A stretch of 32,000 bases of DNA from an uncultured archaeon. Its GTDB lineage: Archaea; Iainarchaeota; Iainarchaeia; Iainarchaeales; DATDZZ01. This document shows, one piece after another, positions 8,403-27,526 of this stretch. The notes beneath the pieces were generated by a model. That model was not told the origin of the DNA. It was given only the letters and a program-made list of their open reading frames with translations, and did not search any database. The stretch is taken from positions 29,383 to 61,382 of the forward strand of contig CAYJVY010000003.1 of NCBI GenBank assembly GCA_964373795.1, read 5' to 3'. The translations under genes were made by a program, and so were the position numbers. Numbering within the stretch: position 1 is the first letter of the stretch; each line of letters opens with the position of its first letter.

Positions 8403-8840
8403 ATGAAATTAAGAATTAAAAAAGAAGTTGAAGAAGCCATCATTCCAATTTATGTTCATGAAGGCGATGCTGGAATGGATTTGTATTCAGTTGAAGAAAT
8501 GATTTTATTGCCTGGAGAAAGAAAACTTGTTTCAACTGGAATTAGAATTGAATTAGAGCAAGGATTTGAAGCTCAAGTAAGACCTAAAAGTGGTTTAGCA
8601 TTAAATCATGGAATAACTGTTTTAAATACTCCTGGAACAATTGATGCAGGTTATAGAGGAATAGTTAAAGTAATTTTATTTAATGCGGGAAACGAATCAT
8701 TTAAAATAGAGAAAGGAAAAAAAATTGCTCAACTAGTTGTAAAAAAAATCGAGGTTGCAGAAATAGAAGTAGTGAAAGAATTAAGTGAAACTGTTAGAGG
8801 AGATGGGGGATTTGGCTCTACTGGTTTGCATAGGAAGTGA
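8403..8840 (+). CDS. dut: dUTP diphosphatase (trimeric, bacterial-type dUTPase)
   Basis: All five dUTPase motifs are visible: [43 protein letters not shown]. Confidence 0.9.
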
Positions 8841-10594
8841 GAAACATAATTAGAAAACCAATTATAACTGTATTAGGCCATGTAGATTCAGGAAAAACGA
8901 GAACACTTGACGCTATTAGAGGTACTTCTATAATAGACAAAGAAGCTGGAGGAATTACTCAACATATTGGAGCTACTGAAGTGCCAATTAATGTAATTAA
9001 AAAAATTTCAGGAGCCTTGCTTCAAAAATATGGATTTAATTTAAGTATTCCTGGATTGCTTTTCATTGATACTCCTGGACATGAAGCTTTCACTAATTTA
9101 AGGAAAAGAGGAAGCTCTATTGCTGATTTAGCTGTACTAGTTATAGATATTAATAAGGGTTGTCAAGAGCAAACATTTGAAGCAATTGAAATTTTGAAAT
9201 CATTTAAAGTGCCATTCATTATTGCTGCAAATAAAACTGATGCAATTTTTGAATGGAATTCAGTTGAAGGATCAATCACTGATTCATTGCAACAACAATC
9301 TAGTCAAGGCTTGGATAAACTTGATAGACTGGTTTACACTATTGTAGGACAATTACATGAAAGAGGTTTTCAATCTGAAAGATTTGATAGAGTGAACGAT
9401 TTCACTAAACAAATTCCAATAATTCCTTGTTCTGCTAAAACAAAGGAAGGATTTCCAGAGATTTTAATGTTTTTAGCTGGTTTAAGTCAAAAATATTTAG
9501 AGAAACAATTAAAGATTTCAGTTGAAGGTCCTGGAAAGGGAACGATTTTAGAGGTAAGAGAAGAAAAAGGTTTAGGGAAAACAGTTGATGTTATTTTATA
9601 TGATGGAACTTTAAAGGTTGGAGACAGAATTGCTTTAGGAGGAAAAGAAGGAGTAATAGAGTCAAAGGTTAGAGCTTTACTTGAACCAAAACCTTTAGAT
9701 GAAATTCGAGATCCTGAAAAAAAGTTTTCAAACGTTAAAGAAGTTTCAGCTGCAGCAGGAGTAAAAATTGTTGCAACAAATTTAAACGATGCATTAGCTG
9801 GATCGCCTTTAATTGTTGTTTCATCAGAAGAAGATATTGTAAAATTACAAGAAGAAATTAAAAGCATTAAAATTGATAGTGATGCAATTGGTCCTATACT
9901 GAAAACAGATACTCTTGGATCGCTTGAAGCAATTGCTTTAATGCTTGAAAAAGAAGGATTAAAGATTAGAAAAGCAGATGTAGGAGACTTAAATAGAAAA
10001 GATTTAATTGAAGCTGAAACAATTAAAGAAAAAGACAAGTTTAAAGGAGTAATATTTGTATTCAATGGAAAAGTTGATTCAGAGATTGAAAAAGAAGCTG
10101 AAAAAAAAGGATTAAAAATATTCAAATCAAATGTAGTTTATTCCTTAATTGATGGTTACAAGAAATGGATGGAAGAAGAAAAACAAAAAGAAAAAACGCA
10201 AAAACTTTCCTCAATTATTTATCCTGCAGAGTTTAAAATTTTGCCTGGAAATGTTTTTAGGAACTCTAAACCAGCAGTTGTAGGAGTGCATATTTTGCGA
10301 GGAAAACTTAAAACAGACATTAATGTAATGAATTCAGAGGGAAAAATTGTTGGAAAAATTCGAGCAATTCAATCAGAGGGAAAGGTAGTGAAAGAAGCCT
10401 TGCAAGGAGATGAAGTAGCAGTTTCAATTGATGATGCAGTTGTAGATAGAACAATTAAAGAAAAAGAAATTCTTTACACTTTTATTCCAAAAAATCAGTT
10501 CACTGAAATTGAAACTTTTTTGTCAGACTTTACAGAGGATGAAAAAGAATTATTAAATCAAATTAAATTAATTGAATTAAAAATTAAAGCATAA
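8837..10594 (+). CDS. infB: Translation initiation factor aIF5B (IF-2 homologue)
   Basis: GTPase motifs [24 protein letters not shown], and aIF5B-length domains II-IV. The GTG start overlaps the dut stop (GTGA). Confidence 0.93.
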
Positions 10595-10609
10595 TTGGAG
10601 AGTGAAAAA

Positions 10610-11128
10610 ATGAATATAGTAATTTCAAGTCCTAAAACAGCTAAAGCATATTCCAAGAAAATGGAGAAACCAGTTTTTTTAAGTAAAAAAATTGGTTCAG
10701 AAGTTGATTTATCTATTTTAGGTTTAGAAGGATATACTGGGAAAATAGTTGGAGGATCAGATAAAGATGGATTTCCAATGAAGTCTTCCCTTGAAGGAAC
10801 TTTTAGAAGAAAGGTTTTCATTTCAAAAGGCGTTGGATTTAATCCTAAAGCAAAAATTGAATGGAAGAAAAAAGACAAGAAAAAATTAAGACAAAAATTC
10901 ATTAAAGGAATAAGGGTTAGAAAAAACGTTAGAGGAAACACTGTTGCAGAAGACATTCATCAATTAAATATTGTTGTAGTAAAAGAAGGATCAAAACCTT
11001 TAGATGAATTATTTCACCGAGCAGCCGGTGGGGCTGAGGCAAGAGCAGGTGGGGCTGAGGCAAGAGCAGGTGGGGCTGAGGCAAGAGCAGGTGGGGCTGA
11101 AGCGAAAGCAGAGGGAAAAAAGAAATAA
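10610..11128 (+). CDS. rps6e: 30S ribosomal protein S6e with a repeat-containing C-terminal extension
   Basis: MNIVISSPKTAKAY...GYTGKIVGGSDKDGFPMKSSLEG...RRKVFISKGVGFNPK...KKLRQKFIKG. The ATG at 10610 follows GGAGAGTG (the track start at 10595 is TTG). The tail is AGGAEAR x3 plus AGGAEAK. Confidence 0.9.
   Translation: MNIVISSPKTAKAYSKKMEKPVFLSKKIGSEVDLSILGLEGYTGKIVGGSDKDGFPMKSSLEGTFRRKVFISKGVGFNPKAKIEWKKKDKKKLRQKFIKGIRVRKNVRGNTVAEDIHQLNIVVVKEGSKPLDELFHRAAGGAEARAGGAEARAGGAEARAGGAEAKAEGKKK
11024..11107 (+). repeat. Four tandem copies of a 21-bp GC-rich unit (GCAGGTGGGGCTGAGGCAAGA) inside the 3' end of rps6e
   Basis: Copies lie at 11024-11044 (1 mismatch), 11045-11065, 11066-11086 (these two identical) and 11087-11107 (3 mismatches). 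They are in frame and encode the heptad AGGAEAR. Confidence 0.95.
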
Positions 11129-11156
11129 TTTTTAAATTAATTTTTGGAGTGAAAGA

Positions 11157-12365
11157 ATGAGTAAAACAGAGGCAATTCCAATTCAAGCTGAAATGAATAT
11201 TGGAATGGTTGGACATGTAGATCATGGCAAGACAACTCTTACAAAGCTTTTAACTGGAGTGTGGACTGATACTCATTCAGAGGAGTTAAAGAAAGGAATT
11301 TCAATTAGATTGGGTTATGCTGATGCAGTTTTTAGGAAATGCTTGAAATGCAGTGGAACAGAGGCTTTCACTACTTCTGAAAATTGTTCTGTTTGTGAGG
11401 GAAAAACAAAGGTGTTACGTAAAGTGAGTTTTGTTGATGCTCCTGGACATGAAACTTTAATGACTACAATGTTAAGTGGAGCTGCTTTAATGCAGGGAGC
11501 AATTTTGGTTATTGCTGCAAATGAAAAATGTCCTCAGCCTAGAACAGTTGAACATTTAATGGCTTTAGAGATTAGTGGAATTAAAAACTTAGTTGTAGTG
11601 CAAAACAAGGTTGACTTGGTTGAAAGAGAAAAAGCTTTAGAAAACTTTAATCAAATAAAGTCTTTTTTAGAATCACATGGATATAAAGATGTTCCAATAA
11701 TTCCTTTGGCTGCAAATTTTGGAACAAATGTTGATTTATTAATTGAAGTAATTGAAGAAAAAATTAAAACTCCAGTATTTGATTTAAATAAGCCTTTGAA
11801 AATGTTTGTTGCGCGCTCCTTTGATGTGAACAAGCCTGGAATTGATCCAAGTAAATTAAAAGGAGGAGTTGTAGGTGGAACAATTATTCAAGGGAAGATT
11901 AAATTAAATGACAAGATTGAATTAAGGCCTGGAATTAATGGGAAAAAAATTGAAACAGTTGTTCAAAGCCTTGGAACAATTAATGGAGCATTAAAAGAAG
12001 GCGTTCCAGGAGGATTAATTGCAATTGGTTCTTCTCTTGACATGGGTTTAACTAGAAACGATCAAATGCGTGGACAAATAGTTGGAGCAGTTAATTCTTT
12101 GCCAGAGCCAATAACTAAATTGAGTTTAGAATTACATGTACTTAAAAGACTTTTAACTGATTCTTCTGAAAAAATAAAATTTAATGAAAGCCTTGTATTA
12201 ACAATTGGAACTGCTACAACAATTGGAGTAGTAGTGAAAGAAAAATCAAATGTTCTTGAATTAGATTTAAAGACTCATGTAATTGCTGAAAAAAATCAAA
12301 GAGTGGCTATTAGTAAAAAAATTGGAAGCGCTTGGAGATTATATGCTTATGGAATAGTTAAATAA
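11157..12365 (+). CDS. eif2g: Translation initiation factor aIF2 gamma subunit
   Basis: NIGMVGHVDHGKTTLTKLLTG, zinc knuckle CLKCSG...CSVCEG, DAPGHE, QNKVD. Confidence 0.93.
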   Translation: MSKTEAIPIQAEMNIGMVGHVDHGKTTLTKLLTGVWTDTHSEELKKGISIRLGYADAVFRKCLKCSGTEAFTTSENCSVCEGKTKVLRKVSFVDAPGHETLMTTMLSGAALMQGAILVIAANEKCPQPRTVEHLMALEISGIKNLVVVQNKVDLVEREKALENFNQIKSFLESHGYKDVPIIPLAANFGTNVDLLIEVIEEKIKTPVFDLNKPLKMFVARSFDVNKPGIDPSKLKGGVVGGTIIQGKIKLNDKIELRPGINGKKIETVVQSLGTINGALKEGVPGGLIAIGSSLDMGLTRNDQMRGQIVGAVNSLPEPITKLSLELHVLKRLLTDSSEKIKFNESLVLTIGTATTIGVVVKEKSNVLELDLKTHVIAEKNQRVAISKKIGSAWRLYAYGIVK

Positions 12366-12377
12366 AAGTTGAATGAA

Positions 12378-12767
12378 ATGAGTAAAATGATTGCATTGGA
12401 TTCAAACATGTTATTAGCAATACCTCAATTCAAGGTTGATGTATTCAGTGAAATAAAAAGGCTTGATGGGAATGTGAATTTTGTTATTCCAATTCAAATA
12501 AAAAATGAATTGATTAATTTATCAAATAAAAGCATTAAAATGAAGAAAGCTTGTGAAATAATTTTTTCTTTAATGAAGCAAAATAATGTTACCGTGAAAA
12601 AAGTGAATGCATTGAATGCAGATAATGCTTTACTAGAGTTATCAAAAAAAGGAATTGCAGTTGCAACGAACGACAAAGAATTGAAGAGAAGAATAAAAAT
12701 TTTTGGAGGAGAAATATTTTTTTTAAGGAAAAAAAAATTTATTGAAAAAACTGGAGGAGTGAATTAA
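12378..12767 (+). CDS. PIN-domain protein (Fcf1/Utp24-like, the family conserved next to aIF2gamma and rpoE in archaea)
   Basis: MIALDSNMLL (first acidic PIN residue), VIPIQIKNELINLS, VATNDKELKRRI. The conserved gene order aIF2gamma-PIN-RpoE'-Spt4-S24e-S27ae supports the call. Start choice is uncertain: TTG 12369, ATG 12378 or ATG 12387. Confidence 0.75.
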   Translation: MSKMIALDSNMLLAIPQFKVDVFSEIKRLDGNVNFVIPIQIKNELINLSNKSIKMKKACEIIFSLMKQNNVTVKKVNALNADNALLELSKKGIAVATNDKELKRRIKIFGGEIFFLRKKKFIEKTGGVN

Positions 12768-13379
12768 ATGTATGCAATTTATACTGTTAGAGACACTGTG
12801 AGAGTTCCACCAAAGGCTTTAGGAGAAGACTTGAATAACAAGATTTTGGAGTTAGTTCAAGAAGATTATGAAGGGGTAGTGGATGAAGATTTAGGAGTTG
12901 TTTTAGCAGTAATTAATGCTAAAAAAATTGGAGAAGGAAAAATTATTCCAGGCGATTCAATGGTTTACTATAGCACTGAAATTGAAATGCTTTTATACAC
13001 TCCTGTTTTACATGAAGTAGTTGAAGGAGAAGTAACAGAGGTAACAGAGTTCGGAGTATTTATTAGAACAGGGCCAATTGAAGGTTTAGTGCATAGAAGT
13101 CAAATAATGGATGACTTTAATACTCATGATGCTAAAAGTTCTTCTTTTATTGGAAGAGAGTCAAAGAAAAAAATAACTTTAGGAGACACGGTTTTTGCTA
13201 GAACAGTTAATGTTAGTTTAAAGGGTTCAATTTCTAGTTCAAAAATTGGTTATACTATGAGACAATTAGGTTTAGGAAAAAAGGATTGGCTTAAATTAGA
13301 TGAAAAAAAGAAAGAAAAAGTAGTAGTAAAAGAAAGAACTAAAGAAAAATCTGTTAAAACAGATAAAAAAGAGAAATAG
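12768..13379 (+). CDS. rpoE: DNA-directed RNA polymerase subunit E' (Rpo7) with a Lys-rich C-terminal tail
   Basis: MYAIYTVRDTVRVPPKALGEDL at the N-terminus and the S1 domain VVEGEVTEVTEFGVFIRTGPIEGLVHRSQIMDD. The ATG abuts the PIN stop codon. Confidence 0.9.
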   Translation: MYAIYTVRDTVRVPPKALGEDLNNKILELVQEDYEGVVDEDLGVVLAVINAKKIGEGKIIPGDSMVYYSTEIEMLLYTPVLHEVVEGEVTEVTEFGVFIRTGPIEGLVHRSQIMDDFNTHDAKSSSFIGRESKKKITLGDTVFARTVNVSLKGSISSSKIGYTMRQLGLGKKDWLKLDEKKKEKVVVKERTKEKSVKTDKKEK

Positions 13380-13387
13380 GTGGTTAA

Positions 13388-13582
13388 ATGTTGAAAGAAA
13401 AAGCTTGCAGGAATTGTAGAAACGTAATAGAAGAAGGAAGTAAATGCCTTAAATGTGATGGAAACGCTTTTACGACTTTTTGGAAAGGATATGTAGTTGT
13501 AATTGATCAAGAAAAATCTCAAATAGCTGCAAAAATGGGAGTGAAATCTCCAGGAAAATATGCTTTACGTTTATCAAGATAA
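13388..13582 (+). CDS. spt4: Transcription elongation factor Spt4 (RpoE'')
   Basis: Zinc ribbon CRNCRNVIEEGSKCLKCDG followed by FWKGYVVVIDQEKSQIA. Length 64 aa, in the conserved position after rpoE'. Confidence 0.85.
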   Translation: MLKEKACRNCRNVIEEGSKCLKCDGNAFTTFWKGYVVVIDQEKSQIAAKMGVKSPGKYALRLSR

Positions 13583-13594
13583 GGAGTGAATTAA

Positions 13595-13948
13595 ATGAGA
13601 ATAGAAATAGTTGATAAAAAAGAAAATGTTTTACTGCACAGAGATGAATTGTTTTTTCAAGTAAACGAAGTTGAAAAAACTCCTTCAAGAGAAGAGGTTA
13701 GACAAAAATTAATTGCTTTAACTAATTCAACTCCAAATTTAGTTGTAGTTCAAAAAATTAATTCAGAATACGGATCACATAAATTTAGTGGGCAAGCAAA
13801 AATCTATAAAGAAGAAAAATACTTGAAAGAAATAGAGCTTCCATATATTAAGAAAAGAAATTTTAAAGAAGAAACAAAAAAAGAGTCAACTGGAGAGACA
13901 GTGCCTGTAATACCTCAAGTAGAGCCTGAAAAGAAAGTAAAAAAATAA
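13595..13948 (+). CDS. rps24e: 30S ribosomal protein S24e
   Basis: MRIEIVDKKENVLLHRDELFFQV...TPSREEVRQKLIAL...VVVQKINSEYGSHKFSGQAKIY. Confidence 0.9.
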   Translation: MRIEIVDKKENVLLHRDELFFQVNEVEKTPSREEVRQKLIALTNSTPNLVVVQKINSEYGSHKFSGQAKIYKEEKYLKEIELPYIKKRNFKEETKKESTGETVPVIPQVEPEKKVKK

Positions 13949-13969
13949 TTCTATTAAAGGAGAATTTTA

Positions 13970-14146
13970 ATGGCAAAAGAACAGAAAAAAAAGAAAAAGA
14001 AAAATAAATCATCTTTTTACTCAGTTGAAGGAGCTAGTTTGAAGAGAACTAGAAAGTTTTGCCCTAAATGTGGACAAGGAGTTTTCATGGCCGAACATAA
14101 AAACAGGTTGTCTTGCGGGAAATGCTCTTACACTGAAATGAAATAA
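13970..14146 (+). CDS. rps27ae: 30S ribosomal protein S27ae (58 aa; below the length cut-off of the ORF track)
   Basis: My translation is [58 protein letters not shown]. It has the zinc ribbon CPKCG...CGKC, AGGAG upstream, and the expected position after S24e. The 14021..14203 minus-strand ORF is its shadow. Confidence 0.85.
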
Positions 14147-14148
14147 AG

Positions 14149-14682
14149 GTGAGGAATTTTCTTTTAAATTTTTTAATTGATTTGTTTCTACTTTTATTTC
14201 CATTTGGCTATCTTAAATTAGTTGACAAAGAAAAAAACTTAATTAAAGAATTAGGATTAGTTTTCCAAGGATTAAAGAAAACATTTCTTAATGCATTAAT
14301 TTTATTTCTTGCATTGTTTTTTGTTTCCTTTATTCTTTCAACTGTTTTTACTTTTTTAAATTTAAATGACTTGGAAAAGGTTAGCGAAATAGCTTTAGAA
14401 TTAAAAAAATCTTATTTATTGTTAGCCTATCTTTTAATTTTTCGGATTTTTGCAGAAGAAATTTTTTTCAGAGGATTTTTAGTTAAAAAAACTGGAGTAA
14501 TAATTTCTTCAATTTTGTTTGCTTTAGCTCACATTGGATATGGATCAATAATTCAAGTCTTTGGAGCATTTATTTTAGGATTAATTCTGGCTTTAAACTT
14601 TAAATTAAATAAATCTTTAATTCCAAATATTTTAGCTCACATGGCTTACAATGCAGTAATAATTTTCATAATTTTAAAGTGA
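14149..14682 (+). CDS. CPBP-family intramembrane glutamic endopeptidase (CAAX protease/Abi family)
   Basis: Polytopic membrane protein with the motifs FAEEIFFRGFL (EExxxR), FALAHIGYG (FxxxH) and HMAYNA. GTG start 2 nt after the S27ae stop. Confidence 0.8.
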   Translation: MRNFLLNFLIDLFLLLFPFGYLKLVDKEKNLIKELGLVFQGLKKTFLNALILFLALFFVSFILSTVFTFLNLNDLEKVSEIALELKKSYLLLAYLLIFRIFAEEIFFRGFLVKKTGVIISSILFALAHIGYGSIIQVFGAFILGLILALNFKLNKSLIPNILAHMAYNAVIIFIILK

Positions 14683-14686
14683 TTTA

Positions 14687-15328
14687 ATGACTGAAATAAT
14701 TAAGTTAACTAAAGAAACTGAAAAACAAGTTTTATTAAAAGCAGTTGAAGTGCTTGAAAAAGGCGGAATAATTATTTATCCAACAGAGACTTGTTATGGC
14801 ATTGGATGTGCAATTAATTTTCCTGAAGCAATTAAAAAAATTTATGAAATAAAGCAAAGAAATGAATTGCCAATGCTTGTGATAGTTGATTCAATTAAAT
14901 CAATTAAGCCTTATGCAAACATTAATGAAAAAGCAAATTTTTTGATTTCAAGGTTTTGTAAAGGGAAAAACTCTAGGCCTTTGAGCCTGATTGTAAGTAA
15001 ATCAAACTTGGTTCCGAAGGAGTTGACTAAGAGTAATGAAATTGGTTTTAGAATTACTTTGAATAAATTTGCAAAACAATTGTGTAAAAAACTTGGCAAG
15101 CCATTGATTTCAACTTCAGCGAATTTTCATGGAGAAAAACCAATTTACAATGCATTTGAAGTAAAACAAAAATTTAATGACAAAGTTGATTTAATTATTG
15201 ATTCAGGTTATTTAATTAAATCAAATCCTCCGAGCACTGTTTTTAATGTTAATTCAAGTAAAGTTTTAAGAGAAGGATTAATTTCTGAAAAAGAAATTAT
15301 TCAAGCATTAAATGAGGGCAAAAAATGA
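14687..15328 (+). CDS. sua5: L-threonylcarbamoyladenylate synthase, short single-domain YrdC/TsaC type (t6A pathway)
   Basis: GGIIIYPTETCYGIGC, ISTSANFHG, PSTVF. At 213 aa there is no room for the C-terminal SUA5 domain. Confidence 0.88.
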   Translation: MTEIIKLTKETEKQVLLKAVEVLEKGGIIIYPTETCYGIGCAINFPEAIKKIYEIKQRNELPMLVIVDSIKSIKPYANINEKANFLISRFCKGKNSRPLSLIVSKSNLVPKELTKSNEIGFRITLNKFAKQLCKKLGKPLISTSANFHGEKPIYNAFEVKQKFNDKVDLIIDSGYLIKSNPPSTVFNVNSSKVLREGLISEKEIIQALNEGKK

Positions 15329-16305
15329 TTTCGCTTGGAATAGAGTCAACTGCTCATACTTTTGGAGTAGGAATAGTTGATGAAAACTGTAAAGTTTTGG
15401 CAAATGAAAAACATGCTTTAATGAAAGAGTCAACTGGATTAATTCCAAGAGAGTTAATGGATCATCATTTAGAGTTTGCTGAAAAAGTATTAATTCAGGC
15501 TTTGGATAAAGCAAAAATTTCTTTAAAAGAAGTTGACTTAATTAGTTTTTCTCAGGGCCCTGGAATAGGGCAAGCATTAAAGGTTGGAGCAACTACTGCT
15601 AGAACGCTTTCGCTTTTACATGATAAGCCTTTGATTGGAGTTAATCATTGCATTGCTCATGTTGAAATTGGAAAAAAATTAACTCTTGCAAGAAATCCTA
15701 TTAGTGTTTATGCTTCTGGAGCTAATACTCAAATAATTGGATTTGAAGCTGGGAGATATAGAGTTTATGGAGAGACACTTGATATTGGAATTGGAAATTT
15801 ATTGGATTCTTTTGGAAGAGAAATTGGAATAGGTTTTCCTGCTGGCCCTAAAATAAGTGAAATGTATTATCAAGGGAAAAACTTAATTGAATTGCCTTAT
15901 ACTGTTAAAGGAATGGATTTAGTTTTTTCAGGGTTGTTTACTGAAGCAGTGCGAATGATTGGAAAAGTGAATGAAATTGATTTAGCTTTTTCTTTAATGC
16001 ATACTGCTTTTGCAATGCTTGCAGAGGTAACTGAAAGAGCTTTAGCTCATACTGAAAAAAATGAATTACTTTTAGTTGGAGGTGTGGGAGCTTCAACTGT
16101 TTTACAGGAAATGCTTAAAGAAATGTGTGAGCAAAGAAATGCAAAACTTTTTTTTCCTGAACGACAGTTTTTAGTTGACAATGCTGCAATGATTGCATGG
16201 ACTGGATTAATTTCTTTTGCAAATGGAAATAAATTAAATTTATTTGAAAGTGAAATTCTTCCTTATCAAAGAGCTGATCAAGTTCAAGTTAATTGGGTGA
16301 AATAA
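15325..16305 (+). CDS. kae1: tRNA N6-adenosine threonylcarbamoyltransferase Kae1 (KEOPS catalytic subunit), not fused to Bud32
   Basis: ISLGIESTAHTFGVGIV, GVNHCIAHVE (metal-binding His pair), LVGGVGAS, DNAAMIAW. The ATG overlaps the sua5 stop (ATGA). Confidence 0.93.
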   Translation: MISLGIESTAHTFGVGIVDENCKVLANEKHALMKESTGLIPRELMDHHLEFAEKVLIQALDKAKISLKEVDLISFSQGPGIGQALKVGATTARTLSLLHDKPLIGVNHCIAHVEIGKKLTLARNPISVYASGANTQIIGFEAGRYRVYGETLDIGIGNLLDSFGREIGIGFPAGPKISEMYYQGKNLIELPYTVKGMDLVFSGLFTEAVRMIGKVNEIDLAFSLMHTAFAMLAEVTERALAHTEKNELLLVGGVGASTVLQEMLKEMCEQRNAKLFFPERQFLVDNAAMIAWTGLISFANGNKLNLFESEILPYQRADQVQVNWVK

Positions 16306-16829
16306 TGTTTTCCCGTTCGACAACTACTGAAATTAGAATTCAAATTCCTGACATTAATGGTTTCAGAAAAAAATTGCATGCATTGAAAGCAAAAAAACTT
16401 TTCACTTATTATTTTAATGATTTTATTTTTGTGCCTAAAACAAAAAAATTTGATTTAAATAAAGAGTCAATGAAGTTGCGAATAGTGAAACTTAATGGCA
16501 AGAAAAGCTTTAAATTAATTTATCAGTTAGTGAAATGGAGTAAAGGCATTAAAGTTTTACAAAACGGTTTTAAAATTGATTTGAAGAGCTTGTCTCAAGG
16601 ATTTGAATTGCTTTCTCATTGGCAGTTTAAAAAACTTTTTTCTTTCACTAGAAAAGGAGAAAAATATTCTCTTAAAGACTGGACTTTTGTTTTAGAAAAA
16701 ATTCAAGGACTTGGATGGTTAATTGAAATTGATGGTTCAATTAAAAAAATTAGGCTTACTCAAGAAGTGCTTGGATTGAAGAAAACAGTTAACAAATCAA
16801 TCCCTTGGCTTGTAGAGCATTCTAAATGA
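16305..16829 (+). CDS. CYTH-like (CyaB/thiamine triphosphatase fold) protein with a degenerate N-terminal ExExK motif
   Basis: Block-by-block resemblance to archaeal CYTH proteins: TEIRIQI (in place of ExExK), YYFNDFIFVP, MKLRIVKLNGKKSFKLIYQ, FSFTRKGEKYSLKDWTFVLEKIQGLGWLIEIDG, VLGLKK. The ATG at 16305 overlaps the kae1 stop (TAATG). The track start at 16293 is TTG. Confidence 0.6.
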   Translation: MFSRSTTTEIRIQIPDINGFRKKLHALKAKKLFTYYFNDFIFVPKTKKFDLNKESMKLRIVKLNGKKSFKLIYQLVKWSKGIKVLQNGFKIDLKSLSQGFELLSHWQFKKLFSFTRKGEKYSLKDWTFVLEKIQGLGWLIEIDGSIKKIRLTQEVLGLKKTVNKSIPWLVEHSK

Positions 16830-17951
16830 TTTTCTTGATTTTTTTCTTCCTTTTCCTTCTTTCACTTTTCTTAAAAGAGTTGAAAGAGAGTCTTGAACTG
16901 CTGAAATCATTTTCCAATTAACTGCTTTTGAATTCATTGAAATTCCTGGAGCAGTTAACTGGCTATTAACTGTATGTTTTTTTCTTAATCCAGTTATATT
17001 ATGGTCTTTGAATTGAATTTTTAAAGCAATTTTGTTTTGACAAATTTTTTCAATTTTGTCATAAGTTTCATTTATTACATTTGAAACAATTTTTTCATCT
17101 ATTTCATCTAGTTTTGGAAGGTTAACGAATTGAATTTCTTTTTTTTCTTGCATTGAATAAAGGTATACTTCTATTAAGTCTCTTGGAGTAACTATTCCCA
17201 TTGGTTTTGTTCCTTCAAGTAGTACTACATGGCTTCCTTTTGGTTCATTTAATTTATTAATTATTATTGAAATGCTTTCCATTGGAGAAGAAGTTTTAAC
17301 GTCTAAAATAATGTCTCCACTAATTGGAGCTGATGATAATTCAATTTTGTTCAATTCATCTCTATTGAATTTTGTTTCTTTTCTTGTAATTGGTAGACTT
17401 AGGTGTTTCTTTAAAATGTCTCTAAAAGAAAGAACTCCACTTAAATCTCCTTTTTCATTTACTACAATTAGTCTATTAATGTTGTTTTTTTTCATTAAAT
17501 GAATTGCTTCCCCTAGGCTAGCATTTTCATTTACTGTGATTAGTTTTTTAGTGCAAACGTCTTTTGCTTTTAGTCCTTTAAGTGAGGGATGGTTTTTAAT
17601 TGCATTAATTATATCTCTTGCTAGAACAACTCCTCTTACTTTATTGTCTTTGTCGACTACTGCTAGCATTCTGGAATTAGCTGTATACATTAATTCTGCA
17701 ATTCTTTCAAGTGAATCATCTTTATTTAATGTGGGGAATTGTTGAATTATTTTTCCAACTTTTAATTTAGTAAAATCAGTTGAAACTCTGTACAAGTTTC
17801 TTTTTGAAGTAATTCCTAAATAAGTTCTTTTTTCATCTAAAACTACTGCAGCTCTTTCGTGAGTAGCTTTTAATTGTCCAATGAAATGAGTTACTACGTC
17901 ATTCTTTGATAAAGCCAAAAAATTAGTTTTCATTAAATTCTCTGCATTCAA
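16797..17951 (-). CDS. Four-CBS-motif (two Bateman modules) protein with a C-terminal RaiA/HPF-like domain and a basic tail
   Basis: There are four repeats of the CBS pattern (e.g. AAVVLDEKRTYLGITSKRNL, MLAVVDKDNKVRGVVLARDII, RLIVVNEKGDLSGVLSFRDIL, HVVLLEGTKPMGIVTPRDLI). The C-terminal ~95 aa resemble ribosome hibernation factors (see findings). The 3' end overlaps the CYTH-like gene by 33 nt (convergent). Confidence 0.85.
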   Translation of the reverse strand: MNAENLMKTNFLALSKNDVVTHFIGQLKATHERAAVVLDEKRTYLGITSKRNLYRVSTDFTKLKVGKIIQQFPTLNKDDSLERIAELMYTANSRMLAVVDKDNKVRGVVLARDIINAIKNHPSLKGLKAKDVCTKKLITVNENASLGEAIHLMKKNNINRLIVVNEKGDLSGVLSFRDILKKHLSLPITRKETKFNRDELNKIELSSAPISGDIILDVKTSSPMESISIIINKLNEPKGSHVVLLEGTKPMGIVTPRDLIEVYLYSMQEKKEIQFVNLPKLDEIDEKIVSNVINETYDKIEKICQNKIALKIQFKDHNITGLRKKHTVNSQLTAPGISMNSKAVNWKMISAVQDSLSTLLRKVKEGKGRKKSRKSFRMLYKPRD

Positions 17952-18023
17952 TTAATCACCTTAAAATAATTATTTGTCAAATAAAGTTTAATCCAAACAA
18001 CTTTTAAACCCTCAAGCAAAAAT

Positions 18024-22426: not shown

Positions 22427-23794
22427 ATGGTTGCAAAGAATGCAAAAATTGAAGAAGTTTTTTCAATAGTGAAAAAGGTTGCACAAGCAAAGTCTGCAAA
22501 AGAAGTAATGGATTTGCTTGATGGAAACTTTGAAAGTCTACCTCTTACTGCAAATGCCATGGATCCTCATATGTATGTCAAAAAAAACACTGCCTTATTT
22601 GAACGCGTATTGATAACTGAGTACAGGTTTTTTGACAAACCAGGTGTAGGATTCAAGTTATTGCCTGAAATAAAAATTGAGAAAGCAAAAGTTGTTTCTG
22701 TTTTCGGAAAAGATTTCAATAATGTAAAAGGCAAAGATGATTCTGATTTTGATTATAAATTGGTTTATGAAATTAGTGACAAATTTGTTAGTTTCGAATT
22801 CAGCAAGGAATTGCTGAAAGGCATAAGTGTTGAGGACAAGAAATTTGTTGAGGATGAAGAGCGACAAAAAAAAGCAGTCGAAGAATACCAAGCAAGGGAG
22901 CAAGCAAGGCCAAAGACTGAAGACAAGGTTTTAGCCTATGTTGTAATGCAATTATTTGATATAGTAAAAAAAGAGCTAGACGACGATGTCAAAATTAACG
23001 GGCCTAGAAAACTCCCCATGAACTATTTAGAAACTGGCGTAGCGGAAAAATTGTCAAAACTTGGAACTTCAAAAACCGAAAAACAAGGATATTCTCCTGA
23101 AGAAAGAAAAGACGCAATTGATTTTTATTACAAGTTAAGGGATGAGAACAGGTTATCAGAGCTTTCAGGAGACTTGCAAGTAATTTATCCTGGGAGCAAG
23201 ATTCTTGAACGAATTTCTCCAAGAGTTGAAAAACTGGATTCTTTAAAGGATTTTGTTTTAAGCAGAAAAACAGAAGAAATAAATTTAAGTTATTATTTGA
23301 AATCAGATCCTGCTGGATTCTTTGTTTTAGGCTTTGATGCAAACAACAAAATTGTTTCAGATTTAGTTAAAGCGCTTGATGATAAAAACGTTCAAATTTT
23401 TGGTGGAGCAGCTTTACTGCTTGGCAGAATTGAAGATAAAAACTCTTTTGAAAAACTTTTAAAGAAATTAGAAGAAGTAAAAAAATTAGCAAAACAAAAT
23501 TCTGGAACTTATTCAGAGCCAAGGGCTTGGGCAGGAGAATCAGAGCCAACATATAATCCTTCTGATTATGAGTTAGCTGAATCAATTATTGGCGACGCAA
23601 TAATTTCCGTTGTCAAAAAAAATGAATTGAAGAAAACTGGGAAAATAAGTTTTAATAGATTCATGTCATCTCATATTGACGTAGTTGGATCTGCTAGATT
23701 ATTTTATTGGACAAAAATGGAAGTAGAATTTGATTTGGCAACGCATTTGGAAAAATCAAATAGTGATTTGAATTCTGGATTCATTAAAGGCTAA
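22427..23794 (+). CDS. Hypothetical soluble protein (455 aa), family unknown, with one HEAT-like repeat
   Basis: Long ORF with GAGGA upstream and no TM segments. The segment LVKALDDKNVQIFGGAALLLGRIEDKNSFEKLLKKL resembles a HEAT/PBS-lyase-type repeat. I recognise no catalytic motif. Confidence 0.75.
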   Translation: MVAKNAKIEEVFSIVKKVAQAKSAKEVMDLLDGNFESLPLTANAMDPHMYVKKNTALFERVLITEYRFFDKPGVGFKLLPEIKIEKAKVVSVFGKDFNNVKGKDDSDFDYKLVYEISDKFVSFEFSKELLKGISVEDKKFVEDEERQKKAVEEYQAREQARPKTEDKVLAYVVMQLFDIVKKELDDDVKINGPRKLPMNYLETGVAEKLSKLGTSKTEKQGYSPEERKDAIDFYYKLRDENRLSELSGDLQVIYPGSKILERISPRVEKLDSLKDFVLSRKTEEINLSYYLKSDPAGFFVLGFDANNKIVSDLVKALDDKNVQIFGGAALLLGRIEDKNSFEKLLKKLEEVKKLAKQNSGTYSEPRAWAGESEPTYNPSDYELAESIIGDAIISVVKKNELKKTGKISFNRFMSSHIDVVGSARLFYWTKMEVEFDLATHLEKSNSDLNSGFIKG

Positions 23795-23821: not shown

Positions 23822-24265
23822 TTAGGCTAAACGTCTAGGTCTTTGTTTGAGTTCAGAATCAATTGTTTTAGATGCTTCTTTTAGTTTTGAAAAAATTCTT
23901 GAAACATCTTCTTCTAATTCAGAAATTGTTCCTTGCAAAGAACTAGAGCGAGTTAAATAATATTTTCCTGTTTTTTCAATCAAACCGGATTTACGTAAAT
24001 TATTTAAGTGATTAATTGTGGCTCCTCTGCTGATTTTAAGTCTTTTAGCTATTTGAGTAGAGGAAATCCTTTGCCCTAACTCAGTAGAAGAAACTATTTC
24101 CCTAAACGCTGAAGCAGCTGTTTTTCCTTTATCAATGTTCTCAAAAAAGCCAAGTGTTTTACAAATCCAATAAAATTCATCATCTAAGTCATAAGTAATT
24201 GGCTTTGGAATACGCCTAATAGTTAACTCAAAAGAAGGTTCAATTAATGAATGCATTAAAGGCAT
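23822..24265 (-). CDS. Winged-helix transcriptional regulator, divergent from the hsp20-grpE-dnaK-dnaJ locus (candidate heat-shock regulator)
   Basis: HTH segment ISSTQIAKRLKISRGATINHLNNLRKSGLIEKTGKYYL. The ATG at 24265 (MPLMHSLIEP...) is preferred, because the track start at 24307 is TTG and would run into the inverted repeat. Confidence 0.75.
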   Translation of the reverse strand: MPLMHSLIEPSFELTIRRIPKPITYDLDDEFYWICKTLGFFENIDKGKTAASAFREIVSSTELGQRISSTQIAKRLKISRGATINHLNNLRKSGLIEKTGKYYLTRSSSLQGTISELEEDVSRIFSKLKEASKTIDSELKQRPRRLA

Positions 24266-24297
24266 GTAATAGTTTAAAACAAAACAATTTAAAAGAG

Positions 24298-24342
24298 TTT
24301 TGTCCAAAAAATGCCTAAATTGTTTAAATTATTTGGACAAAA
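24298..24342. promoter_or_regulatory. 11-bp perfect inverted repeat TTTTGTCCAAA-N23-TTTGGACAAAA in the divergent regulator/hsp20 intergenic region (candidate operator)
   Basis: Read directly: 24298-24308 and 24332-24342 are exact reverse complements. The spacer contains TAAATT twice. The repeat sits between the regulator ATG (24265) and the hsp20 ATG (24419). Confidence 0.45.
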
Positions 24343-24889: not shown

Positions 24890-25471
24890 TTGACTGAAAA
24901 ACAAAACTTAAACAAAGCTGAGGACAAGCAATTAAAGCAAGTAGAAAATGAAGAAAAAAAGCTTGAAAAAGAATTAATTGAAGCTCAAGAAAAATTAGCA
25001 GATTATACTGAGACTCTTCAAAGACTTCAAGCAGAATTTGAGAACTATAAAAAACGCGTTGACAAGGAGCGAACAAAATTGTTAGAGTTTGCAAATGCGC
25101 ATTTGATTTCAGATTTTCTTTCAATAATTGATTCTTTTGAAAACGCAATTCAAGTAGTTGAAAAAACAGAAAAATACTCTAAAGAAGATGCAGTGAAAGG
25201 ATTGAAACTGCTTTTCCAGCAAACACTTGATTTAATGAAAAGACATGGATTGAAGGAAATCAAATCAGAAGGAGAAAAATTTAATCCAGAATTTCATGAA
25301 GCAGTTTTACAGGAAAGCATTGCAGAAAAACCCGACTTCCTTGTATTACAAGAATTTCAAAAAGGATATTTATTGAATGGAAAGGTTTTAAGGCATTCAA
25401 AGGTTTTGGTGAATAAGCATCCAGAAGAAAAACATGAAGGCCTTGAAAAAAATGTAAAAGAAAAAAAGTGA
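24890..25471 (+). CDS. grpE: Nucleotide exchange factor GrpE
   Basis: LQRLQAEFENYKKRVDKERTKLLEFANAHLISDFLSIIDSFENA...FNPEFHEAV...VLQEFQKGYLLNGKVLRHSKVLV. It appears to use a TTG start after GAGGA, because no in-frame ATG lies nearby. Confidence 0.9.
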   Translation: MTEKQNLNKAEDKQLKQVENEEKKLEKELIEAQEKLADYTETLQRLQAEFENYKKRVDKERTKLLEFANAHLISDFLSIIDSFENAIQVVEKTEKYSKEDAVKGLKLLFQQTLDLMKRHGLKEIKSEGEKFNPEFHEAVLQESIAEKPDFLVLQEFQKGYLLNGKVLRHSKVLVNKHPEEKHEGLEKNVKEKK

Positions 25472-25475
25472 GAAA

Positions 25476-25604
25476 ATGGTTGAATTAAATTCATTAAAGT
25501 TTTCATCTGAAGAGCAAGAAAAATTTTTAGAAGATTTAAGGATTAAAAAAATCGTTCAACAAATGCGTTTACAAAGTGAAGTAAGAATTGGTTTTGCCGC
25601 TTAA
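25476..25604 (+). CDS. Possible 42-aa ORF between grpE and dnaK ([42 protein letters not shown])
   Basis: The ATG lies 5 nt after the grpE stop and the ORF ends inside the GC-rich island. It is below the track cut-off, has no recognisable family and no clear SD. Confidence 0.25.
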
Positions 25605-25648
25605 CGTGGCACGCGAACGCGCGCGAGACAGCGATGGAGGAAATTAAA

Positions 25649-27526
25649 ATGAGTAAAATTATTGGAATTGATTTAGGAACAAGCAATTCAGCTGCAGCTG
25701 TTTTAGAAGGAGGAAAGCCTAGAATTATTCCTTCAGCTGAAGGAGTTTCTCTTTATGGAAAAGCTTTTCCTTCAGTTGTAGCTTTCACTAAAGATGAACA
25801 AATGCTTGTAGGCGAGCCAGCTAAAAGACAAGCTGTTTCAAATCCAGAGGGAACAATTACTGGAGCTAAAAGAAAAATGGGATCAAATTATTTGTTTAAG
25901 GTTAGAAGAAAAGAATTCACTCCTCAACAAATTTCTGCATTTATTTTGCAAAAAATTAAAAAGGATGCAGAAGAATTTTTAGGCGATAAAGTAACTAAAG
26001 CAGTTATAACTGTTCCAGCTTACTTTGATGATAATCAAAGACAGGCAACAAAGGATGCAGGAGAAATAGCTGGATTAGAAGTTGTAAGAATAATTAACGA
26101 GCCAACTGCTGCTTCACTTGCATATGGCTTGGATAAGAAAGCAAAAAACTTGAAAATTCTTGTATTTGATTTTGGTGGAGGAACATTGGATGTAACTATA
26201 ATGGAGTTAGGAGAAGGAGTGTTTGAAGTTAAATCCACTAGCGGAGATACTCAGCTTGGTGGAAGAGACATGGATGACTTAATAGTTAATTGGATTGTTT
26301 CTGAATTCAAGAAAACAGATGCAGTTAATTTATTGAAGGATTCAATTGCAATGCAAAGAGTTAGAGAAGCAGCTGAAAAAGCCAAAATAGAGTTGTCAAC
26401 TACTCTTGAAACTCAAATTAATTTGCCTTACATTACAGCTGATTCTTCTGGGCCAAAGCATTTGAATATTTCTTTTAATAGAGCAAAATTAGAGGAATTA
26501 ATTCATCCATTAATTAAGAGATGCGAGCATCCAGTTCAACAAGCTTTAGCTGATGCAAAATTAACTGCTGCAGAAATTAGTAAAGTTATTTTAGTTGGAG
26601 GGCCAACTAGAATGCCTGTAATTCAACAATTTGTTGAAAAAGTTGTAGGAATTAAAACTGAAAGAGGAGTTGATCCAATGGAATGTGTTGCAATGGGTGC
26701 AGCAATTCAAGCAGGAGTTTTAGCTGGAGAAGTAAAAGATGTATTATTGTTAGATGTTACTCCTCTTACTTTAGGAATTGAAACCTTGGGAGGAATTAGA
26801 ACTCCTTTAATTCCTAGAAACACTACTATTCCTACTCGAAAATCTCAAGTTTTTTCAACTGCTTCAGATAATCAACCAGCAGTAGATATTCATGTATTGC
26901 AAGGGGAAAGAGAAATGTCTGCAGATAACAGAAGTCTTGGAAGATTTCAGTTAACAGGAATTCCTCCTGCTCCTCGCGGAGTACCACAAATTGAAGTAAC
27001 CTTTGATATTGATGCAAATGGAATAGTTCATGTAACAGCTAAAGATTTAGGAACAGGTAAAAGTCAATCAATTAAGATTGTTGCCTCTCAAAAACTTGGT
27101 GAAGACGAAATTGAGAAAATGAAAAAAGAAGCAGAAAAGTTTTCAGAAGAAGACAAGAAAAAAAAGCAAGAAATTGAAACAATTAATTTAGCTGATCAAA
27201 CAGTTTTTCAAACAGAGAAAATGCTTCAAGAATTAGGAGAAAAAGTTTCTCCTGCAAAGAAAAAAGAAGTTGAAGAAAAAATTTCAGAATTAAAAAAATT
27301 GCTTGAAGAAGAGAAAAAAGACGCAAAAAAAATTAAAGAAAAATTAGATGAATTAAATAAATCCTTGCAAGAAATTGGTTCAGAGATTTACAAAAACGTT
27401 AATCCTCAACAAGGAAATCAAACTAATCAGCAAAACACTCAAGAAGAAAAACCCGGAGATGAAAACGTTGTAGACGCGGATTTCAAAGTAGAAGATGAAG
27501 ATAAAAAAGGAAAGAAAAAACATTGA
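25649..27526 (+). CDS. dnaK: Molecular chaperone DnaK (Hsp70)
   Basis: [65 protein letters not shown], and an E/K-rich lid and tail. The ATG at 25649 lies 8 nt after GGAGG. The track's ATG at 25634 would include that SD. Confidence 0.95.

Follow-up and report, generated by a model that had tools for sequence, protein, structure and literature searches.

The stretch of DNA analyzed here (the window, 32 kb with ~29% guanine plus cytosine) belongs to contig CAYJVY010000003.1 of an uncultured archaeon and carries, on its minus strand, a complete gene for a protein in which four N-terminal CBS motifs are followed by a C-terminal domain resembling bacterial HPF and RaiA (Table 1). We call this gene hibA, after the archaeal ribosome-hibernation factor HibA with which its product is compared below; it is the only HibA-like or HPF-like gene in the 32-kb window. 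The nearest named relatives of the encoded protein come from metagenome-assembled genomes (MAGs) of Candidatus Iainarchaeum, Diapherotrites and Ainarchaeum, which NCBI annotates just as "CBS domain-containing protein", a label that the gene itself and most of its relatives still carry in public annotation.

The public gene call (P0001) covers 378 amino acids (aa) and begins at an internal ATG codon (M7). Given both the spacing of a Shine-Dalgarno-like GGTGA from an upstream TTG codon and the fact that the N-terminus read from this codon (MNAENLM) aligns with the N-termini of orthologs (MNVKEIL and MNARDIL), we prefer a 384-aa form of the protein, and judging from these sequence features the start of the public call is probably misplaced by six codons (window 17933-17960). 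The 384-aa protein is basic, with a computed isoelectric point (pI) of 9.8.

Table 1. Features of hibA and its surroundings. Coordinates are positions in the window; residue numbers refer to the 384-aa protein; AF2, AlphaFold2; ORF, open reading frame; HTH, helix-turn-helix.
Feature	Coordinates	Strand	Details
HibA/AHA-like gene (hibA), complete	16797..17951	-	384 codons plus stop at 16797-16799; TTG start at 17951 (from the ORF list)
Shine-Dalgarno-like GGTGA	17956..17960	-	4-nt spacer before the TTG codon; read from the sequence
CBS tetrad, N-terminal	17148..17951	-	Residues 1-268; CBS1 ~1-55, CBS2 ~62-118, CBS3 ~126-184, CBS4 ~207-268
Extended loop after the last CBS3 helix	17325..17399	-	Residues 185-209; counterpart of the HibA 'PTC loop' and AHA 'loop 3'
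CBS3 ribose/phosphate-site motif G-h-h-S-x-x-D	17418..17438	-	GVLSFRD, residues 172-178
CBS4 ribose/phosphate-site motif G-h-h-T-x-x-D	17178..17198	-	GIVTPRD, residues 252-258
HPF/RaiA-like C-terminal domain	16857..17144	-	From AF2, Foldseek, family profile, and PF02482 matches among relatives
HPF-domain secondary structure (AF2)		-	beta1 272-276 (IQFVN); alpha1 283-304, containing KIEK; beta2 309-320; beta3 323-334; beta4 337-345; alpha2 348-379, then K/R-rich tail
Basic C-terminal tail GKGRKKSRKSFRMLYKPRD	16800..16856	-	Residues 366-384; 9 K/R of 19; pI 11.6
Translation/t6A block	8837-16829 (aIF5B-Kae1 block)	+	Order of the whole plus-strand cluster: L7Ae, NDK, dUTPase, aIF5B, S6e, aIF2-gamma, PIN, RpoE/Rpb7, S24e, Rce1-like, Sua5, Kae1 (TsaD), weak CYTH-like ORF
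178-aa ORF closing the Sua5-Kae1 operon	16293-16829	+	CYTH PF01928, E=0.0029, below cut-off; overlaps the ends of Kae1 and hibA
Multi-pass membrane protein, 232 aa	18024-18722	-	Between the Cys-rich gene and hibA
Cys-rich repeat protein, 864 aa	18753-21347	-	Precedes hibA, same strand; lipobox-like N-terminus LVIAGC
455-aa ORF	22427-23794	+	No Pfam match
ArsR/MarR-type HTH gene	23822-24307	-
GrpE-DnaK	24890-27526	+	Next after the HTH gene in window coordinates

A CBS tetrad joined to an HPF/RaiA domain

An initial annotation, made by reading the sequence, had proposed four CBS motifs followed by a RaiA/HPF-like domain at residues 272-366, and its placement of these residues at nucleotides 16854-17138 agrees with arithmetic from the ORF coordinates. 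The CBS motifs are borne out by Pfam, which recognizes four CBS stretches in the window protein (E=1.6e-35), as well as by an AF2 model of the full-length protein (predicted local distance difference test, pLDDT, 87.2), in which they form four beta-alpha-beta-beta-alpha units with pLDDT values mostly >90. When the whole model was searched with Foldseek against structures dated up to 2026-04-08 (a set that predates the release of the 9SR* entries and does not include HibA), CBS tetrads dominated the matches, which span ~270-300 columns. The tetrad was closest to ribosome-bound SriA (9znf_4; E=2.8e-21, template modeling [TM] score of 0.87 on the target), with AMP-bound sso3205, Dri, MJ1225 and AMPK-gamma as further neighbors.

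The identity of the C-terminal domain (~115 aa, from about residue 270 to residue 384 including the tail) emerges from its relatives. Residues 261-384, searched exhaustively with HMMER against 1.84 billion representative proteins, matched 128 proteins (E<=1e-3). Of these, 85 are standalone proteins of <150 aa and 33 are ~357-394 aa long with the match at their C-termini, i.e., have the fusion architecture; the remainder comprises some fragments, a single protein of 573 aa and three artefacts of low complexity. The domain alignment (A2) united 124 relatives with the window domain, and 63 of these 125 sequences individually matched PF02482 (Ribosomal_S30AE) at E<=0.01 (best, 3e-8), whereas no other Pfam family was matched by more than one member. 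Searched against PDB sequences, the A2 profile retrieved HibA first (9sr9_H, residues 283-373; E=1.2e-5), followed by ~15 bacterial chains named HPF, RaiA or "ribosomal subunit interface protein" (the first at 1.3e-4), and almost nothing outside HibA, HPF and RaiA down to E=0.05. A word-indexed homolog search returned no relatives when started with the C-terminal domain alone and 5 proteins only when started with the 125-sequence profile.

Structural comparison led to the same families. The AF2 model of the isolated domain (pLDDT 91.8; predicted TM score, 0.78) reproduces each of the elements in the RaiA/HPF layout named in the initial annotation, from the first strand and the helix containing KIEK through the remaining strands to the last helix and its K/R tail. 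In a Foldseek search of the PDB with this model, ranks 1-34 were occupied exclusively by HPF, RaiA/YfiA/protein Y, plastid pY, MPY or RafH (E from 1.2e-5, TM scores up to 0.74 on the target), and unrelated folds appeared from rank 35. Two residues, K315 and W346, are nearly invariant in the family alignments. The ROF (PF07073) and NleE folds were considered and rejected, as each matched below threshold over 25-65 residues and neither recurs among the relatives.

The comparison with PF02482 that the initial annotation had suggested yields a mixed result for the window protein itself: the C-terminal 112 residues alone match nearly the entire profile (positions 16-87 of 88; E=0.0025), but the score of 18.9 bits lies below the family cut-off of 23.7. 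Because 63 of the 125 sequences match PF02482 despite this sub-threshold score, the C-terminal domain belongs to the PF02482 (HPF/RaiA) superfamily as a diverged archaeal branch. The HPF/RaiA identity given to it at the outset therefore stands on the family profile, the matches among its relatives and the 34 top-ranking structures; searches found neither a confident match to an unrelated family nor a different fold.

Compared with bacterial HPF/RaiA proteins (YfiA, protein Y) and plastid pY, which occupy the same decoding-channel site on the small subunit as the archaeal factors HibA and AHA described below, the window domain has a longer last helix and a score below the PF02482 gathering threshold, and the archaeal domain has specific insertions. 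The bacterial proteins are either standalone (~95-115 aa) or long HPF with a C-terminal dimerization domain, and lack a CBS tetrad.

Relationship to HibA and AHA

Proteins of this composition have already been described in archaea. HibA, discovered by cryo-electron microscopy on 70S ribosomes of P. abyssi, consists of a CBS module (residues 1-269) and an HPF/RaiA-like domain (270-392), and is known from Pyrococcus abyssi and Thermococcus barophilus, with structures deposited as PDB 9SR9-9SRF and 9T7H (9SRE representing HibA-PTC) (Madru et al., Nat Commun 2026, PMC13324472; preprint October 2025). Its C-terminal domain occupies the mRNA/tRNA channel of the 30S subunit, its CBS module adopts three positions on the 50S subunit, and its 'PTC loop' (190-207) enters the peptidyl-transferase center (PTC) and there surrounds the universally conserved 23S rRNA nucleotide A2834; HibA inhibits translation in vitro, and ΔhibA cells show delayed recovery from stationary phase (PMC13324472). 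AHA (HVO_2384 of Haloferax volcanii), a member of the HibA family, was resolved on native 70S ribosomes with two AMP molecules at the CBS3/CBS4 junction and its 'loop 3' entering the PTC; a ΔAHA knockout phenotype is reported, and homologs number 3,160 in 2,723 species from 17 phyla (Souza et al., bioRxiv 2026, PMC12934967).

The window protein is related to HibA along nearly its entire length. A clade profile built from 34 full-length fusion-type proteins (A3) aligned with HibA (9sr9_H) in one co-linear stretch (positions 3-372 against residues 5-373 of 392; 213 bits, E=6.7e-62), and the same profile scored well below this against the CBS-only factors Dri, MJ1225 and SriA (~119-125 bits). BLASTP of the window protein against HibA, for which residues 5-373 were rebuilt from the profile alignment, was likewise co-linear (2-363 against 5-368; E=1e-15). 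A search of PDB sequences with the window protein by itself ranked 9l96_a (406 aa), 9sr9_H (392 aa), SriA 9znf_4 and Dri 9e6q_3 highest, and all identified chains were ribosome-bound archaeal CBS factors. A scan of contigs from genomes with the single protein recovered only generic bacterial CBS proteins (24-33% identity over ~110 residues).

The first of these chains, 9l96_a (entries 9l96, 9l98, 9l9c and 9l9v), is an acidic 406-aa "CBS domain-containing protein" whose alignment extends into the HPF domain and which scores 186 bits with the A3 profile. It may be a HibA/AHA homolog from a haloarchaeon whose structure was determined independently; the literature searched contained no mention of the code 9L96.

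Individual features of HibA and AHA recur in the window protein. Relative to HibA, the order and size of the modules (1-269 plus 270-392, here 1-268 plus 270-384), the position of the loop after CBS3 (190-207, here ~185-209) and the basic C-terminal end are all alike. The loop, which aligns with HibA 186-207 in the clade-profile alignment, is modeled between helices 176-184 and 210-213 with pLDDT values <50 for residues 187-203, and it is found in 34 of 34 fusion-type relatives, where the region measures 33-46 aa (35 aa here). Like the window protein, AHA has an N-terminal CBS tetrad with an extended loop (its loop 3) and a C-terminal HPF domain, which in AHA lies on the small subunit; the AMP sites of AHA are at CBS3 and CBS4, where the window protein keeps canonical G-h-h-S/T-x-x-D motifs. 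Differences exist as well: AHA, compared here by its published description, is an acidic haloarchaeal protein, unlike the basic window protein; the loop sequence is unrelated to that of HibA and its length slightly off; and the window protein derives from a mesophilic DPANN lineage (Iainarchaeota-like). Two close homologs are already named in IMG, and we counted this naming toward membership in the HibA/AHA family.

Other archaeal hibernation factors resemble the window protein in the CBS tetrad. SriA of the SriA-D or ARC-A/P factors of Methanosarcina (PDB 9ZNF, 9ZNG and 9ZNI) is structurally its closest neighbor, in agreement with the published phylogeny, in which a SriA-like tetrad is ancestral to that of AHA (PMC12934967), and the tetrad also matches Dri of Pyrobaculum (PDB 9E6Q and 9E7F), although Dri consists of two CBS tetrads. 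These factors, however, have no HPF domain, and their phyletic pattern is reported to be largely exclusive with that of HibA/AHA. The window protein has an HPF domain and is thus not a CBS-only hibernation factor of the SriA-D/ARC or Dri type.

From these correspondences, we consider the window gene to be an Iainarchaeota (DPANN) ortholog of HibA/AHA with a function in ribosome hibernation, to which we assign a probability of about 0.88. The core of the initial annotation, which had seen in this gene a ribosome-silencing factor made of a CBS tetrad and an HPF/RaiA fold, thereby gains support from the co-linearity with HibA, from which that function would follow by analogy. Its remark that archaea would rarely be expected to have an HPF fold no longer holds, as 47% of archaeal genomes reportedly encode HibA (PMC13324472) and AHA is reported from the 2,723 species given above (PMC12934967).

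Several observations weigh against this assignment. The identity to the characterized HibA is only 22%, the motifs of CBS1 and CBS2 are degenerate, and the CBS3 loop, with a length close to the lower limit seen in the family, is not conserved in sequence, such that it may or may not insert into the PTC. In addition, the window protein on its own does not reach the thresholds of the relevant families: against PF02482, the whole protein scores 16.3 bits, even lower than the domain alone, and against NCBIfam TIGR00741 (yfiA/HPF) it obtains 14 bits (E=0.05) relative to a cut-off of 40.9. Such single-sequence matches are only suggestive of HPF identity, and they would suit, as would the NCBI label of the relatives, a generic CBS regulatory protein that lacks ribosome binding and whose C-terminal extension owes its likeness to HPF to chance or convergence. 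The profile, family-wide Pfam and structural searches, however, all converge on HPF/RaiA alone, and there is end-to-end homology with a protein whose structure was determined on the ribosome; on these sequence comparisons and models, a generic CBS protein appears exceedingly improbable and is effectively refuted already.

The low identity to HibA and the unconserved loop might also be expected if the protein is a HibA paralog that has diverged and taken on another task, for example binding to the small subunit alone, assembly or quality control, or regulation through other binding partners, with the HPF fold retained as a generic RNA-binding module. Pointing in the same direction are weak Foldseek matches of the HPF domain to double-stranded RNA-binding domains (E ~0.02), HibA pull-downs that are said in PMC13324472 to recover DNA replication and recombination partners, and the report of more than one AHA/HPF paralog per genome (PMC12934967). 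Yet every defining architectural feature is kept in co-linear order, HPF-family structures outrank all other folds by orders of magnitude, the window holds the single copy mentioned above, and a canonical function would be more parsimonious in the reduced genomes of DPANN archaea, all of which make a re-purposed paralog improbable and leave orthology to HibA/AHA as the preferred reading.

As an ortholog, the gene can be annotated as HibA/AHA with a corrected TTG start, in a protein whose HPF domain is missed at the Pfam threshold. The fusion of a CBS tetrad to HPF is already known and represents a re-derivation of the published HibA/AHA family; as a divergent DPANN ortholog within a family for which structures, nucleotide-binding data and knockouts exist, the window gene is of little discovery value. 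It does document the fused form of HibA for an Iainarchaeota-like genome, within the DPANN, a group in which standalone HPF-like proteins reportedly predominate, and supports the view that reduced symbiotic archaea still keep ribosome hibernation.

Standalone HPF/RaiA-like proteins are reported from 8% of archaeal genomes, mostly those of DPANN and Nitrososphaerales (PMC13324472). The standalone relatives of ~100-120 aa recovered here include P0007, P0010, P0012, P0017 and P0131. Several standalone relatives come from Diapherotrites/Ainarchaeum MAGs, and standalone and fused relatives are interleaved by score among the 128 HMMER matches, in line with the published proposal that archaeal standalone HPF-like proteins arose through repeated loss of the CBS module. 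The 573-aa relative (P0057) carries a PurD-type GARS_A ATP-grasp segment (E=4.8e-51) ahead of three CBS repeats and an HPF-like domain, and may be either a gene-call run-through or a genuine fusion; PurH has been reported as repurposed in ribosome inactivation in Methanosarcina (PMC13324472).

Predicted ribosome engagement and nucleotide gating

By analogy with P. abyssi HibA and H. volcanii AHA, we infer that the window protein binds ribosomes and inhibits translation, and its basic pI and basic tail lend indirect support to the predicted binding of 70S ribosomes. When translation stops, the HPF domain would enter the mRNA/tRNA channel of the small subunit and cover the decoding center across the A and P sites, with the basic tail presumably placed on the ribosome as in HibA, and the CBS module would occupy the tRNA sites of the large subunit with its loop reaching toward the PTC. 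Ribosomes engaged in this manner would be held together as inactive 70S particles and shielded from degradation.

The initial annotation had further proposed that silencing is gated by cellular energy. Applied to the window protein, this would mean that AMP, ADP or ATP at the CBS3/CBS4 interface biases engagement or release according to energy state, a step that can be drawn only tentatively from the homologs and that we place closer to even odds. The motifs GVLSFRD and GIVTPRD are, by their sequence, predicted adenine-nucleotide sites, at the CBS3/CBS4 interface where both HibA and AHA bind nucleotides. Among the 34 relatives, the CBS3 motif has an invariant G172, S/T at position 175 in 24, and D at position 178 in 12; in the CBS4 motif, G252 is present in 30, T/S255 also in 30, and D/N258 in 26 (D alone in 17). 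Eukaryotic AMPK gamma, which matches the tetrad in Foldseek (E ~1e-15), is likewise a four-CBS adenylate-binding module with nucleotide sites that correspond to those of AHA, but it is a kinase regulator without an HPF domain and does not act on ribosomes.

Even in the characterized homologs, nucleotide gating is unproven, because AMP or ATP at 5 mM had no clear effect on the ribosome binding or conformations of HibA (PMC13324472). This result, together with native HibA-ribosome complexes that are devoid of nucleotide (PMC13324472) and the moderate conservation of the motif D in the clade, could be explained if the window protein belongs to the same family but its CBS tetrad serves as a structural module for binding the large subunit and not as an energy sensor, so that how far ribosomes are occupied would depend on expression level and on competing tRNA and mRNA rather than on the AMP/ATP ratio. 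We regard a purely structural tetrad as somewhat unlikely: HibA-CM binds AMP with a dissociation constant of 12 uM, ADP and then ATP more weakly, and GTP and GMP not at all (PMC13324472); native AHA carries its two AMP molecules; the related ARC factors are reported, as cited in PMC12934967, to be released by ATP; and the window protein retains canonical motifs in both CBS3 and CBS4. The authors of the AHA study hypothesize, no more, that AMP stabilizes loop 3 and gates the factor (PMC12934967). The question of gating by AMP or ATP concerns the whole HibA/AHA family and is not specific to this locus.

Genomic neighborhood

The initial annotation had placed the gene at the end of a translation/t6A cluster. 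Adjacency to this block (Table 1) is confirmed and is conserved in relatives, but hibA lies on the opposite strand and converges with the block, their 3' ends overlapping by 33 nt (16797-16829), and therefore it is not co-transcribed with these genes. The same tail-to-tail arrangement of hibA with Kae1, Sua5, S24e, RpoE, aIF2-gamma, S6e and aIF5B recurs in three other contexts (L017, L018/L019 and L020), the proteins of which share 33-37% identity with the window protein over full-length alignments; in L018/L019, CoaE and a nucleotidyltransferase intervene between hibA and the block. Adjacency to the Kae1/Sua5 block was not seen in the ortholog of context L003. We initially entertained that the adjacency is incidental, given its convergent orientation and its absence from L003, and dropped this notion in view of the recurring layout, which offers a small lead on regulation and may reflect plain lineage collinearity.

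On its own strand, hibA is preceded by a gene for a Cys-rich, lipoprotein-like protein and by one for a small membrane protein, a pairing present in three of six contexts. The 864-aa Cys-rich protein has no match in Pfam, and Tandem Repeats Finder detected no DNA-level repeats in its gene. Homologs occupy the same position in L003 (2487-5357) and L020 (2956-5436), each with 28% identity (E=1e-99 and 7e-89, respectively), and small proteins encoded at L003 5357-5962 and L020 5547-5996 weakly match the 232-aa membrane protein (E=1e-6). It is conceivable, though very doubtful, that this layout is regulatory, either through transcriptional interference or antisense effects that would make hibA expression reciprocal to that of the initiation and t6A genes, or through co-expression with the surface protein; the latter, if true, would make the ribosome dormancy of a DPANN symbiont responsive to host or surface sensing.

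Farther upstream of hibA lie the 455-aa ORF, the ArsR/MarR-type HTH gene and the GrpE-DnaK pair (Table 1). In L017, too, the HTH, GrpE, DnaK and DnaJ genes are situated within a few kb of hibA, showing that the collinearity of the region extends more widely.

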